In this document: positions 14,657 through 24,370 of the stretch, piece after piece
How the letters are laid out: each line of letters starts with the position of its first letter
Numbering within the stretch: the stretch's first letter is position 1
Source of the DNA: Escherichia phage vB_EcoS_I14
Length of the DNA: 64,000 bases
Sequence record: PP892525.1
Strand: one strand, 5' to 3'
Made by a program: the position numbers and the translations under genes
The notes under the pieces: generated by a model
The model's input: the letters and a program-made list of their open reading frames with translations, nothing else
The model's database searches: none
What the model was told of the DNA's origin: nothing

Positions 14657-14899
14657 TTACGATTCCTTGAGCAAAGAAGCAAGTTCAGCATAGACTTTAT
14701 CTAACTCAAAGCCGATGCGAAGAGACACGTTAGTTTTCCGTTGTTTAAGTAACCACTCGGATATGTTAGGGATGCCAGCTAATCTATGTGGTACCACCCT
14801 ACATAGCTTTTCCGAAGTGTCGTAAACAGGAACTTTACGTTCTTTTACTGGGAACTTCCTTGTTTCCCATTTTTTATTCTTCACTGTCATTTCTAGCAC
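14657..14899 (-). CDS. hypothetical protein
   Basis: 80 aa ORF overlapping the stop of the upstream helicase gene. Confidence 0.4.
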   Translation of the reverse strand: MLEMTVKNKKWETRKFPVKERKVPVYDTSEKLCRVVPHRLAGIPNISEWLLKQRKTNVSLRIGFELDKVYAELASLLKES

Positions 14900-17663
14900 C
14901 TAGCTCTGCCATTGCTTCATCATGCATATGTTTCTCCTCATCAGTCATAAACTTATACGGGATTGGCATACATTCGATTTTACAATAGGTTCTGTACCAG
15001 TCTACAATATTCTCCGTGTTCATATCCTTACCAATACCCATCATACCAAGATACATTCTGGCATATTTTGGGTTAGCACTCTGACCTGTTTTAAGGAAGA
15101 AATCTTTCTTCTTACCTTTCAGAGCTTCTATGAATGGTTTGATAGTGACATTTGAGCACTTCTTAATATCTTCCCAGAACATCTCGTGCATTTTATGGAA
15201 GAATGCCGCTCGATCATTCGGTTTATCCTTGATATACTGCTCAACATGCTCAACTGTTACATCTTTAATAGACTCAAGATGATAATAGCGAACAAGAAGT
15301 AGTTTAGCTTCATACGCATCTGCATGACGTGGAGCACAATAATCAGGAGTTGAATACAAAATAGCTTTGATTCGCTCTTCCGTATATTCTTTTCCTGCAC
15401 CTTCGATAGTTCCCCAGCTTTCACTGAAAATATCAATAGTTGCACCCTGATCAAGCAAGTAATAACGTAAAGTACTAGTATAGTTCCTAGATTCCAGCTC
15501 CCTACGACGTGCGTATAATTGCTGTGCTAACTCCAGCCAACCTTCATCAATGTTATACTGTTCAGAACCTGCGGAGAATCCACTCGTAGATTTATCAATA
15601 AAATAATAAATGTTCTGGGCACCACGGTCGCGCCTGATTGCTTGGAAACGCATGTTTGGCGCTTGGTTGCTAGTTCTAGTAATAACGAATACGTTATCAA
15701 AATAGTTGAAGTCAACACCACTCGTTACGGATGGACTACATAATAAGCAATCAATTTGTTGGTCAATTAACTCATTAGTTGTGTAATCCAGAATACGTCG
15801 AATATCTACATCAGACGTAGAGTTTGAGTGGATTTCCTTAACTAACGCACCCGTATTACGACGCAACGCCATGCCCTTCTCATTCAGTTCATCCGGCCCA
15901 CAGTCAGATACTAGGATAGATTTCTCCCCCATCTCTAGAGATGTCTGAAGCGCAACCCAAATACTGGATTCATCAGGGAACTCATAAGCATGAGCTTTTG
16001 ACAGCATTTTTCGGTGATGATTATAAAATGCAACCGGTTTATCAAACTCAATCAAGGAACCATATGCTTCAATTGTTTCTGCACTAATATCACCATCAGA
16101 TAATATAATGATTTTTGCAGTTGCAAGAATATCCCGAAGAACCTGAATGCATTCACGACGTTGTTTAACAACCGGGGCGAATAGTAGGTCATTCATTACA
16201 GCATCACATTCATCGATAAAGATTGCATCAATTTGACCAATAAAACTCTTGAACTTATGCAAAGAGTGAATAGTTGTGGACATACGGTCAATAGCACCAC
16301 GCTTAAAATTAAGCATATCTACAGACTTATCATATTGTCCTGCACTAAATTTCTTAGCATTTGAAGACACCAGTGCTCTAGTATTGGTAATTGCTAAGAA
16401 ATTACCTTTAATAACTCCCGAATCTAACCAACGCACAACCGCCGTGGTTTTACCTGTACCTAGACTTGCTTTTACAAAAGTCATATAACCTTCTGGTGGC
16501 ACAGTATTTAATTTCAAGAAGTTATCAGTTTCTAGGGAGTTAGTTTCTAGCTTTTTAAGTGGAATACCTTTTAAAACATCAGGTATATCGCGTTTAGAAT
16601 TATTAACAAACGCTTTCAGAGCCTGTTTACGACCGTTATTAAAGTAATCTTGAATATTACGACTATTATCTTTAGTTGCAATATATTCTGATAAGGCTGG
16701 GCGGATTTCTTTTTCTAGCCATGCAAAATCAACACCATCCTCTAAAGCCCTGTGATAGAGTTTAGGAATAATACGTAGATACACTCCATCCTCAGCTTCT
16801 TCTAGTTCGCTGATAGTTTCTTCTACTTTATCAGAGGCAGCTTTTTTACCCTTAATTTGGTCGAGTAAAGAGTAAAACTCCTCCTTAAACTCACCTCTAG
16901 TTGTTTCATAGTCAACCAGATTATTTGGTAAATTTACTTTAGAACCTTTAACAAATACCAGACGTGAAGCACCCTCCGCCTTAAACGGATCTACTATACC
17001 ATCGGTAAATAACGGATCTGCAAAATAATGGAGCTGTACGGAAGAGTAATAAGCTAAGTCGGCAATATCAAAGCCATACTTTTGTCTACTACTTTCGTTG
17101 ATAGATGTAAATAAGAATTTGATTTGACCCTGAGTTACTTTAACATTAGATTCTAGTATTAAGTGCATTCGGATACCTGGTTTTAGCCCAGCCGAAGATG
17201 ATGCATGAGCGATAAACCCTGCATCAAGAGGAAACATATCCTCACTAATACTATTTAACATTCTAATAATATGTCGAGCCATACCAACAAGATCAAACTT
17301 GTTACAACCACCTGTATCTACAATACCATCCACGTCCATTGCAATTATATGACTTGGGTTAGATACATTAAAGTTGCCCTTCTTACGTCGCACATTATTT
17401 TTAGGTGCAAGACATCGACCTCGTACCGCAACGATATGAGGGTCAGACGTTAAACGCCTCATAAGAGGGAGCATTTCTACTAGGGTTTGAGGATCAACTT
17501 CATCAATTACATCAAACTTGAAGGGCATTGAAGCTGGTTTACCTTCAGGATGCTTTGAGGAAAATCTTTTAGCAAAAAGATAGTCTTCTGCTTTAACTTC
17601 TCGCCAAATGCCTGTGGCTAAGTCGCGATGAAATCCTGCATGACCTTGTAGGATTGAGAACAC
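14874..17663 (-). CDS. large replication protein with P-loop helicase domain (origin-binding/initiator helicase-like)
   Basis: Walker A KASLGTGKTT and Walker B IFIDECD; proposed GTG start at 17663 after ACAGGAG; the track ORF runs to 17741. Confidence 0.7.
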   Translation of the reverse strand: MFSILQGHAGFHRDLATGIWREVKAEDYLFAKRFSSKHPEGKPASMPFKFDVIDEVDPQTLVEMLPLMRRLTSDPHIVAVRGRCLAPKNNVRRKKGNFNVSNPSHIIAMDVDGIVDTGGCNKFDLVGMARHIIRMLNSISEDMFPLDAGFIAHASSSAGLKPGIRMHLILESNVKVTQGQIKFLFTSINESSRQKYGFDIADLAYYSSVQLHYFADPLFTDGIVDPFKAEGASRLVFVKGSKVNLPNNLVDYETTRGEFKEEFYSLLDQIKGKKAASDKVEETISELEEAEDGVYLRIIPKLYHRALEDGVDFAWLEKEIRPALSEYIATKDNSRNIQDYFNNGRKQALKAFVNNSKRDIPDVLKGIPLKKLETNSLETDNFLKLNTVPPEGYMTFVKASLGTGKTTAVVRWLDSGVIKGNFLAITNTRALVSSNAKKFSAGQYDKSVDMLNFKRGAIDRMSTTIHSLHKFKSFIGQIDAIFIDECDAVMNDLLFAPVVKQRRECIQVLRDILATAKIIILSDGDISAETIEAYGSLIEFDKPVAFYNHHRKMLSKAHAYEFPDESSIWVALQTSLEMGEKSILVSDCGPDELNEKGMALRRNTGALVKEIHSNSTSDVDIRRILDYTTNELIDQQIDCLLCSPSVTSGVDFNYFDNVFVITRTSNQAPNMRFQAIRRDRGAQNIYYFIDKSTSGFSAGSEQYNIDEGWLELAQQLYARRRELESRNYTSTLRYYLLDQGATIDIFSESWGTIEGAGKEYTEERIKAILYSTPDYCAPRHADAYEAKLLLVRYYHLESIKDVTVEHVEQYIKDKPNDRAAFFHKMHEMFWEDIKKCSNVTIKPFIEALKGKKKDFFLKTGQSANPKYARMYLGMMGIGKDMNTENIVDWYRTYCKIECMPIPYKFMTDEEKHMHDEAMAELGARNDSEE

Positions 17664-18162
17664 AACAATACTCCTGTGTTGGAAATGAAATAAGTTTTCT
17701 TTAGGACTATTCAGAAAGAATAGAACAACTGTTACTGTCAATTTCTCAACAAATTAATTGCAAATACTGAAGTGGGGTGGCAACTTCCACTTTCACGCTA
17801 CACTGCCGCTTCACTATACCGCACAAATCCTTGAGGATGGCCGCTAAGCCAGATTTGCTCACCTAATGCTTCATGTACTAGCTCATACTAGATGTAGTAT
17901 ACCTTACGTCATCACTTCTCAGAGTTTTTCACTCTTCCCGTCTCACTTCACAACCACCTCACACTAGGTTGCTTCGAGGCCTTACCAGGGTTCCTACGGG
18001 ATGTAGATCGCTAAGTATTCTATTAATTATTTGTTTAAAAACTAACACGTAACAGTTAAAACAACCCTTAATGGGGCAGCCTAACTGTTCCGTATCGCGG
18101 ATTGTAAACAAGAAAAATTAGCAAAATCAATTTTTACTAATGTCTCTCAATTCAATATAAAT

Positions 18163-18191
18163 ATTATATCAAGATTTTGGGCATCCTGCAA
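18163..18191 (-). promoter_or_regulatory. sigma70-type promoter preceding a long ORF-free leader (minus strand)
   Basis: Minus strand reads TTGCAG-17bp-TATAAT; about 500 nt without ORFs before the helicase start. Confidence 0.55.
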
Positions 18192-18282
18192 GTAAAATTT
18201 TCCGGACGGTGCTATCATTGGTCTTGAGTACGGATAAAACCGAGCCAAAATGACTCGGTAATCAGAGTTCAGCTAGTAAAAA

Positions 18283-18675
18283 TCATTCATCATTTAGGCC
18301 TGGAACATAGATCCCAACACGGTTTAATTGTTCTTTAGCTTCTTTGAGAATATCTGGAGTGTACTCCCAAATATCATCTTCCACCTGTAAAAGATGGGGC
18401 GAACAACCGTCATCCGGCACACGACATATGGCCAAACCACGTGGATGGAACAAAGAGAAATTTAGGGCAACAATTAAACCCATAGCAGACAATTCATTCC
18501 AATCCAATTCCCATTCCCCCGCGTAGCCGGATAGGAAAACACCAACACAGGGATCATCTATTTGCTGCTCCGGAAAAGTGAGGGAGGCTTGTCTTACCCC
18601 CAACCAACGTTGTAGCAGCTTCTCCGCACGTTTCACCAAACTAGGGTCAATCTGACGCCAATATACTTGTTCCAT
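18283..18675 (-). CDS. hypothetical protein, tandem paralog A
   Basis: 130 aa; shares MGLxxALN(F/Y)xLF and VPGL motifs with the adjacent ORF. Confidence 0.5.
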   Translation of the reverse strand: MEQVYWRQIDPSLVKRAEKLLQRWLGVRQASLTFPEQQIDDPCVGVFLSGYAGEWELDWNELSAMGLIVALNFSLFHPRGLAICRVPDDGCSPHLLQVEDDIWEYTPDILKEAKEQLNRVGIYVPGLNDE

Positions 18676-18684
18676 TCTGCCTCC

Positions 18685-19113
18685 TTAAGCAGTTAAACCT
18701 GGGATCATATACCCGAAACGGCGAAGTTTTTGAATCCCCTCATTTACTTCTTCCGGTGAGTAAGACCAACCATAACGTTCATTAATCTGAAAACCAGGAG
18801 ATTCACTAGTTTTATAGTTAACAACGAGGCGGTGCTTAGCAGGCATAAACAGCTTATAATTTAACGCAAAAACTAAGCCCATTTCGTCTAACTCTTTCCA
18901 GCCCACAATCTCTTCAAGACCATCCTCTACCTGAACAATTAAACCAATACAGGGAGCCTCATCAATATCATCTTTAAAAGCAAAGGAGATTTCGTTATTC
19001 TCACACCATATTTTCAAAGAGTTAATAGCCTCATTATACAGGCTAGCTGGGAGGGTACGCCAAAAGTTAACCAAAATTGGGTTAGCCTCTTTAGAGAAGA
19101 CATTATTAAACAT
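18685..19113 (-). CDS. hypothetical protein, tandem paralog B
   Basis: 142 aa; paralogous to 18283-18675. Confidence 0.5.
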   Translation of the reverse strand: MFNNVFSKEANPILVNFWRTLPASLYNEAINSLKIWCENNEISFAFKDDIDEAPCIGLIVQVEDGLEEIVGWKELDEMGLVFALNYKLFMPAKHRLVVNYKTSESPGFQINERYGWSYSPEEVNEGIQKLRRFGYMIPGLTA

Positions 19114-19622: not shown

Positions 19623-19818
19623 TTTTGTTCCTTTCTAAGAACGTATCATACTCAACCGTATCAACATATATAACACCATAGTCATCGGATTTATAGTCCA
19701 TTTCCCACAGCTCACAGCGATAGCACCAACTACCATCTGCCCATACAAATATATCATCGGGATGTGTATAAACAGATTTAACTATGGACATATCTGTTTC
19801 CCTTGCTTCTCGACACAT
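19609..19818 (-). CDS. hypothetical small protein
   Basis: 69 aa ORF; true start may be the internal Met. Confidence 0.35.
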   Translation of the reverse strand: MCREARETDMSIVKSVYTHPDDIFVWADGSWCYRCELWEMDYKSDDYGVIYVDTVEYDTFLERNKNGNK

Positions 19819-20614
19819 AAGGTCTACCCTCTAAATGAGCTTCTACACGAGCAATAAAATCAGGGTCACTAAAAGCATCTACCGCACCTTTACTCCAGTA
19901 AGGGATACCGCGTTCTTCCAACTGGTACATCTCACTACGAGTCATACCTTGATAGCCCGGTTCTGCTGCGAGGGCACTATCATAGTAGTTAACAACCATA
20001 AGTTTCGCAGCAGTCAAATTAAGAACAGGAAATAATTCCCAGTAGAAGTTAATTACTTGGTTAGAGCAACCAACCACAATGATCATATCTTGACTGGTAA
20101 TACCATCAAAAACATTATACATTTCTGCGTATGCAGGAGCATGTTCTCCAAAGAAGATTACATTAGGTTTAACCCATTTATAATCATCTGGATCAATAGA
20201 ATTATACCCTACATCAATAATCCGTTTATTGCTACTATTGTAGCTATCAGCTACAACAACCTCTTTTAAATATCCGTGAATGTGCAGAATGTCACTATGT
20301 GGAACGCCAGCACGCTCAATAAGGTCATCAACGTTGGTAGTCAAGTTTACTACTTGACCTGGATATTGTTTATACCATTCACCAATACGCAAATGTGCAA
20401 GATTGGGTTCAACAGTTTTTAGCTCTTCACGACGTTTGTTGTAAAACATATGGGTTTTATGGTAAAAATTACCACGAAAGGCATGAATATTACATACTTC
20501 TTCTAGATCATAATCATCCCACAATGCTTTACCACTAGCAGTATCAGTACGAAAAGCTCGTACACCACTTTCAACACTCAAACCTGCACCGCTAATAATA
20601 ATTACCCTACGCAT
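19778..20614 (-). CDS. SIR2-family (sirtuin-like) NAD-binding protein lacking the zinc ribbon
   Basis: 278 aa; sirtuin motifs GAGLSVESGVRAFR, TTNVDDLIERAG, HIHGY, PNVIFFGE, VVGCSN; no CxxC pairs. Confidence 0.65.
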   Translation of the reverse strand: MRRVIIISGAGLSVESGVRAFRTDTASGKALWDDYDLEEVCNIHAFRGNFYHKTHMFYNKRREELKTVEPNLAHLRIGEWYKQYPGQVVNLTTNVDDLIERAGVPHSDILHIHGYLKEVVVADSYNSSNKRIIDVGYNSIDPDDYKWVKPNVIFFGEHAPAYAEMYNVFDGITSQDMIIVVGCSNQVINFYWELFPVLNLTAAKLMVVNYYDSALAAEPGYQGMTRSEMYQLEERGIPYWSKGAVDAFSDPDFIARVEAHLEGRPYVSRSKGNRYVHS

Positions 20615-21390: not shown

Positions 21391-23265
21391 TTATTTAGCT
21401 CGAATATCCTGATGTTTCACCCTGCCCATAACCTCATGCTGTTTGCCTGGGTTAAATGGACGAGCACCTGGATTTCCAAGATACCCACAAACTCGACGAG
21501 TTACTTCAAGAGTTTCAGGGTCATGATTACCACAGATAGGGCACTTAAACCCATCTTCGGATGCTATTGTTTCACCTAAGAATCCACATTTACCACAAGA
21601 ATCCACTGGAGTATTAATACCGAAGTAATGAACCTTACTAGCAGCATAATTAATAACCCATTCCAGTGCATCTGGGAATCGTTTCATATCCGGTAGTTCT
21701 ACATAGGAAATACACCCACCAGAAGCAATCGGAGTAAAGTTAGATTCATAATCAAATTTGACGTTAGGAGCAACTTTACGTTCCACATCAAGGTGGTGCG
21801 AGTTAGTGTAGTATCCTTTAGACAGAATATCTTCATGCTCTGGGAAATATTCACGGTCTAGACGACAAAAACGATCACATAGGGATTCTGATGGTGTAGC
21901 ATACAGGCTATAACCTAACTTAGTTTCTTCCTTCTTCTGATCGACTCTATCCCGCATGTACTGCAATACACGCTGAACAAACTTGATGCAGGTCTCGGAC
22001 ATTGTGTCTACATCTTTGCCAAACATGAACTGTAGCATTTCATGGCAACCAATATACCCTAGAGATACAGAAGCACGGTTATAGAAATGATCGAATACAT
22101 ATTCATCAGGCTCCAAGCGTAAACCAAAGGCTCCTGACATATAGAGGATAGGTGCAGCTTTAGCTTGGATGTATTTTAAGCGATCAACTCTCCACTCCAA
22201 TGCTTTTAACGCTGTATCCACACGTAGCTCAAGCAAATCAAAGAATAGATCAATATTTCCTTCAGCTTCGATAGCAATTCTAGGCAAGTTTACAGAAACA
22301 ACACCTAAGTTATTACGACCGGCAGTTTCACCATCTTCTGTAGCAGCTAAGAATGAACGACAGCCCATAGAAACTTTATAGTCTCCAGTAACTTCCACAA
22401 CCTTATCATAGCTGATATAATCTGGATACATACGTTCAGCAGTACATTTCATAGCTAACTTCTTGATGTCATAATTAACATCCCCTGGTTTCATATTTAC
22501 GCCATCACGAAGTACAAATACCAGTTTCGGGAAGATAGCTGTACGTTTATTGATACCTAAACCATCCATGCGTACTTTGAGTATTGCTTTCTGTACTAGA
22601 CGTGCTTCCCAAGAAGTTCCCAGACCAAAGCCAAAGGTAATAAATGGACTCTGACCATTAGAGTTGAACATGGTATTGATTTCATATTCTAGACCCTGAC
22701 AGGCATCATAAACTTCTTTTTCAGTCATCTCCGTAGCCATTACTGATGCTTTGGCCTCATCCTTAGTCCAACGTTTTGCAAACGCATGATTTTTGTCATA
22801 GGATTTACGAACATAAGGAGCTAATACTTCATCAAGGCGATCCACGGAAGTACCACCATACTGATGGGAACTAACCTGTGTGATAATCTGAGCTGTAATA
22901 GCCGCCGCAGTAGTGATAGAGTTTGGAGTGCTAATTTCAGCATTACCAACCTTCATACCATTCTTCAACATATCTTCCAGAGCTACCAGACAACAGTTAG
23001 TCATGCCTAATGCAGCATAATCAGCATCATGGAAATGAATATCCCCAATCATATGAGCATTTCGAATCTGAATTGGCATTTCTTCTAGAATCAGATACTT
23101 ACTCAATTCACCTGCAAGCATATCCCTTTGTGTAGGGAAACGTTCTGAGGGTTTATTGGCATTATTAAACAGCAGTTCTTCATCTGCTGACCCTTCGATA
23201 ATCTCTTTGCAGTTTCTAATTAACGCCTGCATTCCTTTATACTTTAGTTCTTCATTGCGATTCAT
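21391..23265 (-). CDS. nrdD: anaerobic ribonucleoside-triphosphate reductase (class III)
   Basis: 624 aa; C-terminal glycyl-radical motif RVCGYLG; zinc ribbon CGKCG...CPICG. Confidence 0.95.
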   Translation of the reverse strand: MNRNEELKYKGMQALIRNCKEIIEGSADEELLFNNANKPSERFPTQRDMLAGELSKYLILEEMPIQIRNAHMIGDIHFHDADYAALGMTNCCLVALEDMLKNGMKVGNAEISTPNSITTAAAITAQIITQVSSHQYGGTSVDRLDEVLAPYVRKSYDKNHAFAKRWTKDEAKASVMATEMTEKEVYDACQGLEYEINTMFNSNGQSPFITFGFGLGTSWEARLVQKAILKVRMDGLGINKRTAIFPKLVFVLRDGVNMKPGDVNYDIKKLAMKCTAERMYPDYISYDKVVEVTGDYKVSMGCRSFLAATEDGETAGRNNLGVVSVNLPRIAIEAEGNIDLFFDLLELRVDTALKALEWRVDRLKYIQAKAAPILYMSGAFGLRLEPDEYVFDHFYNRASVSLGYIGCHEMLQFMFGKDVDTMSETCIKFVQRVLQYMRDRVDQKKEETKLGYSLYATPSESLCDRFCRLDREYFPEHEDILSKGYYTNSHHLDVERKVAPNVKFDYESNFTPIASGGCISYVELPDMKRFPDALEWVINYAASKVHYFGINTPVDSCGKCGFLGETIASEDGFKCPICGNHDPETLEVTRRVCGYLGNPGARPFNPGKQHEVMGRVKHQDIRAK

Positions 23266-23294
23266 TATACCCTCCTTCTCTAACTAAGACTACT

Positions 23295-23323
23295 ATTATA
23301 ACTCATTCGAAGGCGGATGTCAA
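23295..23323 (-). promoter_or_regulatory. consensus sigma70 promoter upstream of nrdD (minus strand)
   Basis: Minus strand reads TTGACA-17bp-TATAAT (perfect consensus hexamers). Confidence 0.7.
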
Positions 23324-23374
23324 CAATATTTTACTATAAAGTTCTATAACATGATCTGAGTCAAAAAATTTTAT

Positions 23375-23403
23375 TTGCCAACCTCTACTAAAAATAGTAT
23401 AAT
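23375..23403 (+). promoter_or_regulatory. sigma70-type promoter (distal, divergent region)
   Basis: TTGCCA-17bp-TATAAT with A/T-rich upstream. Confidence 0.6.
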
Positions 23404-23515
23404 CACGCACCCGTGTACGCGATATAAAATGATTATCTAGTACCATACATCTCCCAATAAAAGCAAGCAAATTTTTTATTTAAATGCAATATCATAGGCT
23501 TATTTAAAATTGTAG

Positions 23516-23544
23516 TTGCTTTCTCCCGTATATATTGGTATAAT
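23516..23544 (+). promoter_or_regulatory. sigma70-type early promoter upstream of phoH
   Basis: TTGCTT-17bp-TATAAT with AAAATT upstream tract. Confidence 0.7.
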
Positions 23545-23617
23545 ATATTTGTAAGTTGATAAACAAGATCTTTTTGTTGATCCTCTGTTAGCGAAGTACA
23601 CTATAGGAGTGTTATTT

Positions 23618-24370
23618 ATGGGAAAAGCACGTCAAAAAAGAGAGAACCGCAATGGTTCAAGAAAGCGTGGCAACAAGTACGAGAGTAACGTAATTCAAGC
23701 AGATTTCTCTGGTGATTACGCCAATCCAGTTGCTAAATCCCTAGTTGGTAAAAACCGTGAGCAAAAATCATATATCAATATGATCAAGAACAACACAGTG
23801 ACTGTGGGTATCGGTGAACCAGGTACTGGTAAAACCTTTATCCCGTCCGTTCTTGCAGCTCAGGAACTCGTAGACATTCACTCAGATATTGAGCAAGTGA
23901 TCCTCGTGCGTCCGAACGAACCTCTAGGTAAATCTCTTGGTATGCTCCCAGGTGATCTAGCAGAAAAGCTAGAGCCTTGGTTGGAACCAATAGCCGATGG
24001 CATGAAATGGGCAATCGGTGATCACGCCTATAAAGGATATGTCGAACGTCAGAAAATCAAATTCCTGGCTATCGAACATGCCCGTGGCCGAACTTTCAAC
24101 AACTCCTATGTAATTGTCGATGAAGCTCAGAATATTTCCGTTGAGGCAATGATTTGTCTTCTAACTCGTGTAGGGCAAGACTGCCGTTTAATTATCTGCG
24201 GAGATATAGCTCAGAAAGACATTAAAGGTGACTCAGGTCTAGCACTCCTTATGGAAGTCTATGAGAAATACGAAAATGCCCCATTCTCAATGATCGAATT
24301 GATTGATAACGTTCGTTCTGTTGAGTCTAAAGCATTCTATGACATCTTTAAAGACATGGGGAAGGTGTAA
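23618..24370 (+). CDS. phoH: PhoH-like ATPase
   Basis: Walker A GEPGTGKTF; HARGRT; DEAQN; ATG 23618 after AGGAG. Confidence 0.85.
   Translation: MGKARQKRENRNGSRKRGNKYESNVIQADFSGDYANPVAKSLVGKNREQKSYINMIKNNTVTVGIGEPGTGKTFIPSVLAAQELVDIHSDIEQVILVRPNEPLGKSLGMLPGDLAEKLEPWLEPIADGMKWAIGDHAYKGYVERQKIKFLAIEHARGRTFNNSYVIVDEAQNISVEAMICLLTRVGQDCRLIICGDIAQKDIKGDSGLALLMEVYEKYENAPFSMIELIDNVRSVESKAFYDIFKDMGKV

Follow-up and report, generated by a model that had tools for sequence, protein, structure and literature searches.

A large structured RNA in the leader of the D2 helicase gene of T5-like phages

The helicase gene and its untranslated leader

The stretch of DNA analyzed here, referred to as the window, comprises 64,000 nucleotides (nt) of Escherichia phage vB_EcoS_I14 (sequence record PP892525.1), a T5-like phage of the family Demerecviridae. 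On its minus strand, an early promoter is followed by about 500 nt without a gene and then by the gene for a 929-amino-acid (aa) helicase; a sequence-only reading of the same DNA had pointed out this interval and suggested that it might contain a structured regulatory RNA, an element linked to a replication origin, or a small RNA. Comparison with related phages makes it nearly certain that the interval is the 5' leader of the helicase (T5 D2/T5.108) mRNA and represents a new family of large structured RNA. The features of the locus are listed in Table 1.

The promoter consists of TTGCAG (18191-18186) and TATAAT (18168-18163), separated by a 17-nt spacer that ends in TG-n, and lies exactly where the sequence-only reading had placed it. 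Its orthologue is annotated as "putative early promoter T5P32" in both T5 reference records, the AKFV33 record marks the same site as a promoter and quotes the T5 consensus TTGCTT-N17-18-TATAATA, and an alignment showed that the -10 region is kept in all genera. A generic consensus scan did not list this promoter, because its -35 hexamer fits at only three of six positions. From the position of the promoter, transcription is expected to start near 18156, which would give a leader of about 493 nt up to the GTG at 17663. The hairpin that ends the upstream gene sits ahead of the leader promoter, and the T5 and Lindwurm records mark a rho-independent terminator at the orthologous position; it was absent from the list of the generic scan because its T-run is short.

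The GTG had been proposed as the start of the 929-aa helicase, and several observations bear this out: AGGAG lies 7 nt before it (a ribosome-binding site is annotated here in the Lindwurm and phiR2-01 records), coding-type conservation among relatives begins at it, and this codon is ATG in the Sugarland, DU_PP_V, and My1-like phages. Upstream from the GTG, relatives carry frame-breaking indels, which, together with the onset of conservation, rules out a longer, TTG-initiated open reading frame (ORF) of 955 aa as the helicase gene. The identification of the product as a replication helicase also stood and could be refined: the protein is annotated as "replication origin binding protein" (T5.108) and is the same protein as the bipolar D2 helicase, the biochemistry of which was studied by Wong et al. 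(PMC3632103).

The leader had been called unusually long, and it is: genes nearby are spaced by -41 to +68 nt, compared with 619 nt at this interval. All sense frames are closed, as had been stated, with 9 to 18 stops per frame in the window and 8 to 25 in every relative. Closed frames alone are a chance expectation in DNA of 39% G+C; the feature beyond chance is that a gene-free interval of such size persists in more than 520 phage records and across genera. The longest ORFs in the leaders (20 to 65 aa) differ in place, frame, and sequence among lineages, and the ORF comparison across lineages revealed neither a conserved small ORF nor an upstream start, the finding that would have spoken against the sequence-only reading. 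In the GenBank records inspected, the interval is either blank or filled with small hypothetical ORFs. The interval thus encodes no conserved protein. A scan of the whole leader, including the part between the core described below and the helicase gene, detected no above-chance consensus promoter and no terminator. A promoter-like sequence (TTGATT-18-TACAAT, 18101-18130, minus strand), within the 3' arm of the first hairpin, was rejected as being at chance level (one found, 2.7 expected).

Table 1. Features of the leader locus in the window and of insertions and leaders at related loci (L numbers denote the loci compared; their coordinates are those of the locus).
Feature	Coordinates	Strand	Basis
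Hairpin terminator of the upstream DUF7415 gene, ACCGAGUCA-UUU-UGGCUCGGU, then UUUU	18236..18259	-	Sequence; orthologue annotations
Early sigma-70 promoter with TG extended -10	18163..18191	-	Sequence; annotated orthologues
P1, 5'-terminal 16-bp hairpin, GAGAGA.CAUUAGUAAAA / UUUUGCUAAU.UUUCUU	18110..18148	-	Predicted independently in every lineage
P2, irregular hairpin with conserved block GAUACGGAACAGUUAGGCUGCCCCAU (18096-18071), then UUUU	18059..18106	-	Alignment, folds
P3, long closing stem, 5' arm	18014..18058	-	Duplex prediction, covariation
P4, CUACAU (18006-18001) with GUGUAG (17803-17798); encloses both three-way junctions	17798..18006	-
Subdomain I: three-way junction P5 (CCCGU/ACGGG), P5a, P5b (loop UAG..GAGGU), then hairpin P6 (AGAGU/ACUCU)	17921..18000	-
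Conserved single-stranded junction GAGAAGUG	17913..17920	-	Comparison of types
Subdomain II: three-way junction P7'/P7/P7a/P8 with P9 on top	17804..17911	-
Subdomain II as modeled: junction, P7', P7, P7a, P8, P9, P4 3' strand	17797..17920	-	Covariance model
P9, hairpin GGCU-UAGC-GGCC carrying CUUAGCGG	17839..17850	-	Comparison, covariation
P10, hairpin AAGUGG/CCACUU, loop AAGUUGCCACC	17770..17792	-	Folds, helix table
P3, long closing stem, 3' arm	17726..17768	-	Duplex prediction; inverted repeats I1 and I5
P11, small hairpin CUAUUC-UUUCU-GAAUAG, immediately 3' of P3	17707..17723	-	Folds
Ribosome-binding site AGGAG (17675-17671) and GTG start (17663-17661) of the helicase gene	17661..17675	-	Sequence, comparison
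D2/T5.108 helicase gene (929 aa), served by the leader	14874..17663	-	Pfam, NCBIfam, annotations
96-nt module (would insert between window 18110 and 18109)	L002 (DT57C) 1884-1979; also L005, L009, L050, L070
Homing endonuclease insertions	L006 (SHSML-45) 216-668; L015 (AKFV33) 515-967; L008 (KKP_3831) 216-668
Vibrio phage leaders	L085 (JSF12-like) 454-1530; L083 804-1473; L086 896-1518; L106 ~1072-1800

A conserved multi-helix RNA on the transcribed strand

The suggestion that the interval holds an RNA structure was strongly borne out: it is a conserved multi-helix structured RNA on the transcribed strand, supported by conserved helices with abundant compensatory change. An alignment of ten phages showed a near-invariant 5' block of about 110 nt, an optional insertion of 96 nt, a central part of about 290 nt, a conserved 3' block, and the ribosome site. 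The central part occurs in mutually unalignable versions of near-equal length, seven of which were distinguished once further genera were included: types A (the window, Lindwurm, and DT57C), B (T5 itself, AKFV33, and Epseptimavirus), C (phiR2-01), D (Sugarlandvirus), E (Pectobacterium phage DU_PP_V), F (a My1-like phage), and G (Providencia phages PR1 and PSTCR5). Short motifs keep a constant spacing, with GCUUAGCGGC following GGCUGC after 229 to 238 nt in all seven lineages. As the lineages are not alignable by sequence, plain MAFFT plus RNAalifold was unusable on whole leaders or subdomains, and was replaced by structure-profile alignment, folds of each lineage, a curated helix table, and covariance models. 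Separate folding of each of the seven lineages yielded the same topology.

From 5' to 3', this topology comprises P1, P2, and P3, which encloses a core of about 240 nt with two three-way junctions, followed by P11 and the ribosome site. In P1, eight of the nine pairs counted in the curated helix table are changed on both sides, while P2 is near invariant in types A to F and is replaced in type G by a hairpin of different sequence. P3 comprises 39 intermolecular base pairs (bp) in the window and 27 to 39 bp (-24 to -38 kcal/mol) in 7/7 lineages, with unrelated sequences; all nine counted pairs covary, and within-type changes, seen in type A, are wobble compatible. P4, first seen when RNAalifold was run on the structure-aware alignment, occurs as CUACA/UGUAG, CUGCG/CGCAG, CUGUG/CACAG, CCAUA/UAUGG, CUAGA/UCUAG, and CUUUG/CAAAG. 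Subdomain I has the same topology in each lineage's own fold, and its helices 4 to 7 covary. The junction that follows it reads GAGAAGUG in types A, C, E, and F, AAGAAGUG in type D, and GAAUGGYG in type B. In P9, CUUAGCGG is invariant in all enterobacterial lineages, and the stem that carries it covaries (GACU/GGUC, AGCU/GGCU). A U-A pair of P10 has become G-C in 5 of the 18 type A sequences, and all five counted pairs of P11 covary between genera.

The curated helix set contained 14 helices with 75 pairs in 11 representatives, with strand order checked in each real sequence and the helices concatenated without gaps. Pairing was found in 98.2% of the 775 cells, compared with 68.9% when the 3' partners were shuffled among sequences (none of 500 shuffles was as high), and it fell to 37 to 43% when partners were slid by one to three columns; 68 of the 75 pairs were changed on both sides. 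Within type A, an ordinary alignment of 18 distinct natural sequences (96 to 99% identical) contained 25 variable pairs, with 7 double compensatory changes (two in P4 and one each in P5, P6, P7', P7, and P10), 13 one-sided changes that kept G-U or A-U pairing, and 5 disruptive changes. A covariance model built from the type A sequences of subdomain II only (124 nt) found one full-length orthologous match in each of the six other types, at 17 to 34 bits, compared with 9.6 bits for the best background match. In the resulting alignment, which leans towards the structure of the model fitted to it, 95% of cells were paired (63.5% after shuffling) and 30 of 32 pairs covaried. A multitype model found the element as a single copy in the window, at 105.8 bits, and nowhere else in it.

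The direction of the structure is indicated by a strand asymmetry, with 71 G-U cells but only 1 A-C cell in the curated helices. In 7/7 lineages, predicted folds of the sense strand are also more stable than those of the antisense strand and have more negative z-scores; the z-score of the whole window leader is -2.9. The central part is richer in G+C and in purines than the genome, and raised G+C and purine content is typical of structured RNA in an AT-rich genome. These results show that a sense-strand structure, as RNA or at least as the sense strand, is under selection, rather than a DNA palindrome.

Possible functions of the leader RNA

Taken as a whole, our data are probably best explained by a structured leader that acts in cis, is processed at P3 by ribonuclease III (RNase III), and sets the expression of the helicase, although our confidence in this reading is modest. 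Helicase transcripts would have to traverse the structure, because the stretch from the core to the gene shows no sign of another promoter or of a terminator, and a role in cis is favored because this obligatory read-through is combined with a fixed linkage to one gene across deep divergence. RNase III requires an RNA duplex of at least 20 bp, or about two helical turns, a length that P3 reaches in every lineage. We propose that the strong early promoter starts a transcript capped at its 5' end by P1. RNase III would then cut the P3 duplex and split the transcript into a helicase mRNA, with a new 5' end just upstream from P11, and a core RNA closed by the stem, which may also be released as such. 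P11 would protect the mRNA after cleavage, as P1 would protect the primary transcript; cleavage at P3 would set the amount and timing of helicase synthesis, and the conserved loops might be contact points for a protein or for tertiary folding. Read-through of the leader in full, cutting by RNase III, an effect on regulation, and any binding partner are predictions from sequence.

In known RNase III-processed leaders (lambda N, T7 early mRNA, and Escherichia coli pnp and rnc), too, a strong promoter is separated from the gene by untranslated RNA with a long double-stranded stem, and a stable hairpin follows the expected cut. Those sites are single irregular hairpins of about 50 to 100 nt, whereas the stem in the T5-like phages closes a multijunction core of 240 nt and its cleavage is only predicted. 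A second comparison is with the 5' untranslated regions of enterobacterial regulators, such as the rpoS leader, in which several hundred untranslated, folded nucleotides also precede a key regulator; leaders of that kind use small RNAs, Hfq, and sequestration of the ribosome site, and no such platform was found here. The leader resembles a riboswitch in that a conserved structured domain is fixed upstream from one gene, but it is not an aptamer of a class known to Rfam.

Several observations weigh against a processed, cis-acting leader with this fold. We found no conserved sequestration of the ribosome site and no usual expression platform in the leader; the pairing of GCGAUAC in the 5' block with GUAUUGU near the ribosome site, which appears in the minimum-energy fold, was rejected because it is not conserved. 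The core can be swapped between lineages while the flanks remain unchanged, and a core of 240 nt with invariant loops exceeds what a processing site needs, a sign that the RNA has some further function. In types B and G, P6 and P7' are weak or missing. Moreover, the curated helix table was assembled by hand and is biased towards complementary segments, a bias that is lessened, though not removed, by folding the lineages separately, by aligning sequences within one type, and by training a model on a single type.

It is possible, if doubtful, that the element is instead a stand-alone noncoding RNA, a stable core of about 300 nt that is excised and acts in trans. It might, for instance, serve a phage protein as scaffold or partner, sequester a host nuclease or RNA-binding protein, or deflect a host defense as a decoy; the helicase leader would then be merely a convenient site of early, strong expression. 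rRNAs are excised by means of a long-range stem around a folded RNA, and P3 resembles these stems in that distant sequences pair into a long helix such that cleavage frees the RNA between them; the enclosed RNA, however, is unrelated to rRNA, ten times smaller, and located within an mRNA leader. The invariant loop motifs look like recognition sites, and P1 and the remnant of P3 would shield both ends of an excised RNA. In addition, cores pass between distant lineages as modules, with both types found within one genus, and its fast turnover with retention of the fold resembles that of elements engaged in conflict with the host, in which such a pattern is common. On the other hand, linkage to a single gene is kept from enterobacterial phages to Vibrio and Aeromonas phages, in which the N termini of the helicases are only about 32% identical, although gene order is generally conserved in the Demerecviridae. 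A second or free-standing copy was found neither in the window nor in any locus compared.

A related and speculative idea, to which we give little weight, is that the leaders of the Demerecviridae form one fast-evolving, modular class of giant RNAs within the replication-initiation machinery, for example, as RNAs that recruit or gate the D2 helicase at the origin or as excised RNA-protein particles. Leaders ahead of the helicase gene measure about 0.5 kb in T5-like phages; those of Vibrio phages reach 0.6 to 1.1 kb, and that of an Aeromonas phage reaches about 1.4 kb. If this were true, it would reveal an RNA component of the start of phage replication that has no described counterpart.

We consider it unlikely that the leader is an origin-of-replication transcript, in which RNA from the early promoter forms an R-loop or a primer beside the initiator gene and the D2 helicase is loaded there. 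The downstream gene is homologous to origin-binding helicases and to a plasmid replication protein, and a role of D2 in initiation has been suggested by Wong et al. (PMC3632103). The length of about 500 nt matches that of ColE1 RNA II, and a promoter several hundred base pairs upstream with a structured RNA of about 493 nt is what an RNA II-type arrangement calls for; the core is purine rich and the P3 arms are AT rich. Genes for initiators often adjoin their origins, as in lambda, P4, and iteron plasmids, and the helicase gene starts near the middle of the T5 genome (59,545 of 121,750 bp), where early electron microscopy reportedly placed a preferred origin. To our knowledge, however, no T5 origin has been mapped to sequence, and the option of an origin-associated element gained no support from our analyses. 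The search for iterons that had been recommended found only three chance-level two-copy direct repeats in the interval and no repeated binding sites, and the AT-rich stretches are the two P3 arms. The minimum of the cumulative GC skew lies at about 23.5 kb, about 5.5 kb from the leader, at a switch in gene orientation, and a scan of the opposite strand found no antisense promoter-like site. Selection on intramolecular pairing, including G-U pairs, would also be needless for a hybrid-forming primer over 330 nt. The leader shares with ColE1 RNA II and the T4 oriF and oriG transcripts a promoter-driven, structured RNA of about 500 nt that has a conserved fold and is tied to replication initiation, but it differs from them in lacking an antisense regulator, a mapped origin, and evidence for a hybrid and in running into a protein gene.

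An element acting at the DNA level, with the AT-rich inverted repeat and palindromes serving as a cruciform, a recombination site, or a single-strand initiation signal, appears very improbable. The P3 arms do form an inverted repeat of 30 to 40 bp, the interval is a hot spot for insertions (a homing endonuclease cassette and the 96-nt module), and a displaced nontemplate strand would share the sequence of the RNA. The excess of G-U over A-C cells (71 to 1) nevertheless argues against it, as do the one-sided changes in P3, which preserve wobble pairing on the sense strand only, the poorer folding of the antisense strand in all lineages, and the placement of a strong promoter and a 5' hairpin directly ahead of the element. 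We give next to no credence to a nonfunctional spacer, decayed gene, recombination scar, or overlooked small protein gene, since the small ORFs that some automated annotations place in the interval are unconserved in frame and sequence, and covariation with constant spacing of motifs across genera is unexpected of decaying sequence.

Distribution, exchange of cores, and neighboring genes

The 1.1 kb around the leader match 523 phage records, mostly of Salmonella, Escherichia, and Klebsiella phages of the genera Tequintavirus and Epseptimavirus, and the family as defined by our models spans Markadamsvirinae, Mccorquodalevirinae, Sugarlandvirus, and Priunavirus. A long leader precedes the same helicase gene in every genus examined. 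In Vibrio phages, a promoter and a strongly folded leader of 620 to 1,077 nt without a credible ORF lie before the orthologous gene; these leaders did not match the multitype covariance model of the T5 family. In Aeromonas phage AhSzq-1 (L105, 1-1608), about 1.4 to 1.6 kb upstream from the helicase gene contain neither an annotated gene nor a sense ORF of more than 65 aa. The likeness of this leader to the T5 type is confined to two hairpins with the P9 loop, AGGU-UUAGCG-GCCU at 443 and GGAAUCUCC-UUAGCG-GGAGAUUCC at 703-727. A long structured leader before the initiator helicase gene is therefore a trait of the whole family, which does not imply common descent of these leaders. The Vibrio phage leaders also have a conserved 5' block followed by a variable center, as in the T5-like phages.

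This family of large structured RNA had not been annotated before, although T5 is a classical model phage. In Rfam 15, only tRNAs reached gathering scores in the window and the leader has no family; at E values of up to 10, the leader gave only chance snoRNA-like matches far under threshold, and six related loci had no match at E values of up to 1. The models left unmatched include those of GOLLD, ROOL, HEARO, OLE, 6S, RNase P, tmRNA, Y RNA, riboswitches, and group I and II introns, and ARAGORN found no tRNA or tmRNA in the leader. A full-text literature search yielded neither a description of the leader RNA nor a T5 transcript map of the leader region; part of the RNA may be among the roughly 10,000 candidate viral structured RNAs catalogued in PMC10690425. 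A pattern scan of metagenomes returned only further copies of types A and D and chance matches (L092 and L099 to L102), and scans of IMG/VR recovered mainly isolate genomes. The loop sequence TTAGCGG was also considered as a genome-wide motif and rejected: the window holds 11 copies, compared with 5.2 expected, and none of these is in a hairpin context.

Like GOLLD, ROOL, OLE, and HEARO, the leader RNA is large, has multiple junctions, is supported by covariation, and has no assigned function, and GOLLD and ROOL are also associated with phages. Those RNAs, however, are free-standing genes, often near tRNAs, whereas the leader RNA is fixed to one gene and confined to the Demerecviridae. The relatives of T5 are among the commonest coliphage and Salmonella phage isolates, and many have been proposed for therapy and biocontrol; the leader makes up 0.4% of the T5 genome, lies directly before the gene for the replication initiator, and is blank in the annotations inspected. 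If our interpretation is correct, it adds a family of structured RNA of uncommon size and unusually clear covariation, present in more than 500 sequenced phages with an easy genetic system, and would offer a handle both on the control and initiation of the very rapid DNA replication of T5 and on the roles of large structured RNAs in phages.

The core (window 17770-18011) behaves as an exchangeable cassette between near-identical flanks, as seen when the window was compared with T5 (L068), L013, and L012. The type A core of the window is nearest to type E, from a Pectobacterium phage of another subfamily, while T5, which belongs to the same genus as the window phage, has a type B core that is nearer to the types of Yersinia and Klebsiella phages. 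Because cores differ between near-identical flanks, recombination at the conserved blocks is implied. The retention of the fold while cassettes are swapped between genera provides a natural data set for the evolution of RNA structure.

Two further modules were seen near the 5' end of the leader. The optional 96-nt module is flanked by a UUUUUCUU repeat and has a stem-closed fold of its own; 51 of about 520 T5-like records contain it, in each case as a single copy and nowhere but between P1 and P2, and it is joined to cores of types A, B, and C. In some relatives, the gene for a homing endonuclease of 150 aa lies between the upstream terminator and the leader promoter, at a place corresponding to window positions ~18200-18235. 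Along with a promoter of its own, the cassette carries a duplicate of the initial part of P1; the leader start therefore doubles as a homing junction. A UUUU run directly follows P2 (18059-18067, minus strand) in types A, B, C, E, and F and is weakly terminator- or pause-like, about 100 nt into the transcript. A short RNA made up of P1 and P2 is conceivable.

In the helicase, residues 394-533 match Pfam Herpes_ori_bp, and residues 393-722 match the NCBIfam plasmid replication protein CyRepA1 with an E value of 5e-35, under the family cutoff. The N-terminal 390 residues (16494-17663, minus strand) matched no Pfam, NCBIfam, or PDB entry, and a single-sequence AlphaFold model of this domain was too poor to use (predicted local distance difference test score, 36). 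In our reading, its motifs IIAMDVDG and SSSAGLKPGIRMH are reminiscent of the catalytic motifs of archaeo-eukaryotic primases. The gene upstream from the leader (18283-18675, minus strand) encodes a DUF7415 protein orthologous to T5.107; a paralogue adjoins it (18685-19113, minus strand), and a Sir2-like gene at 19778-20614 precedes the pair. The cumulative GC skew of the window turns at ~23000-24000, where the genes switch from the minus to the plus strand. A block of 24 tRNA genes, typical of T5-like phages, occupies 35.7 to 46.9 kb of the window.

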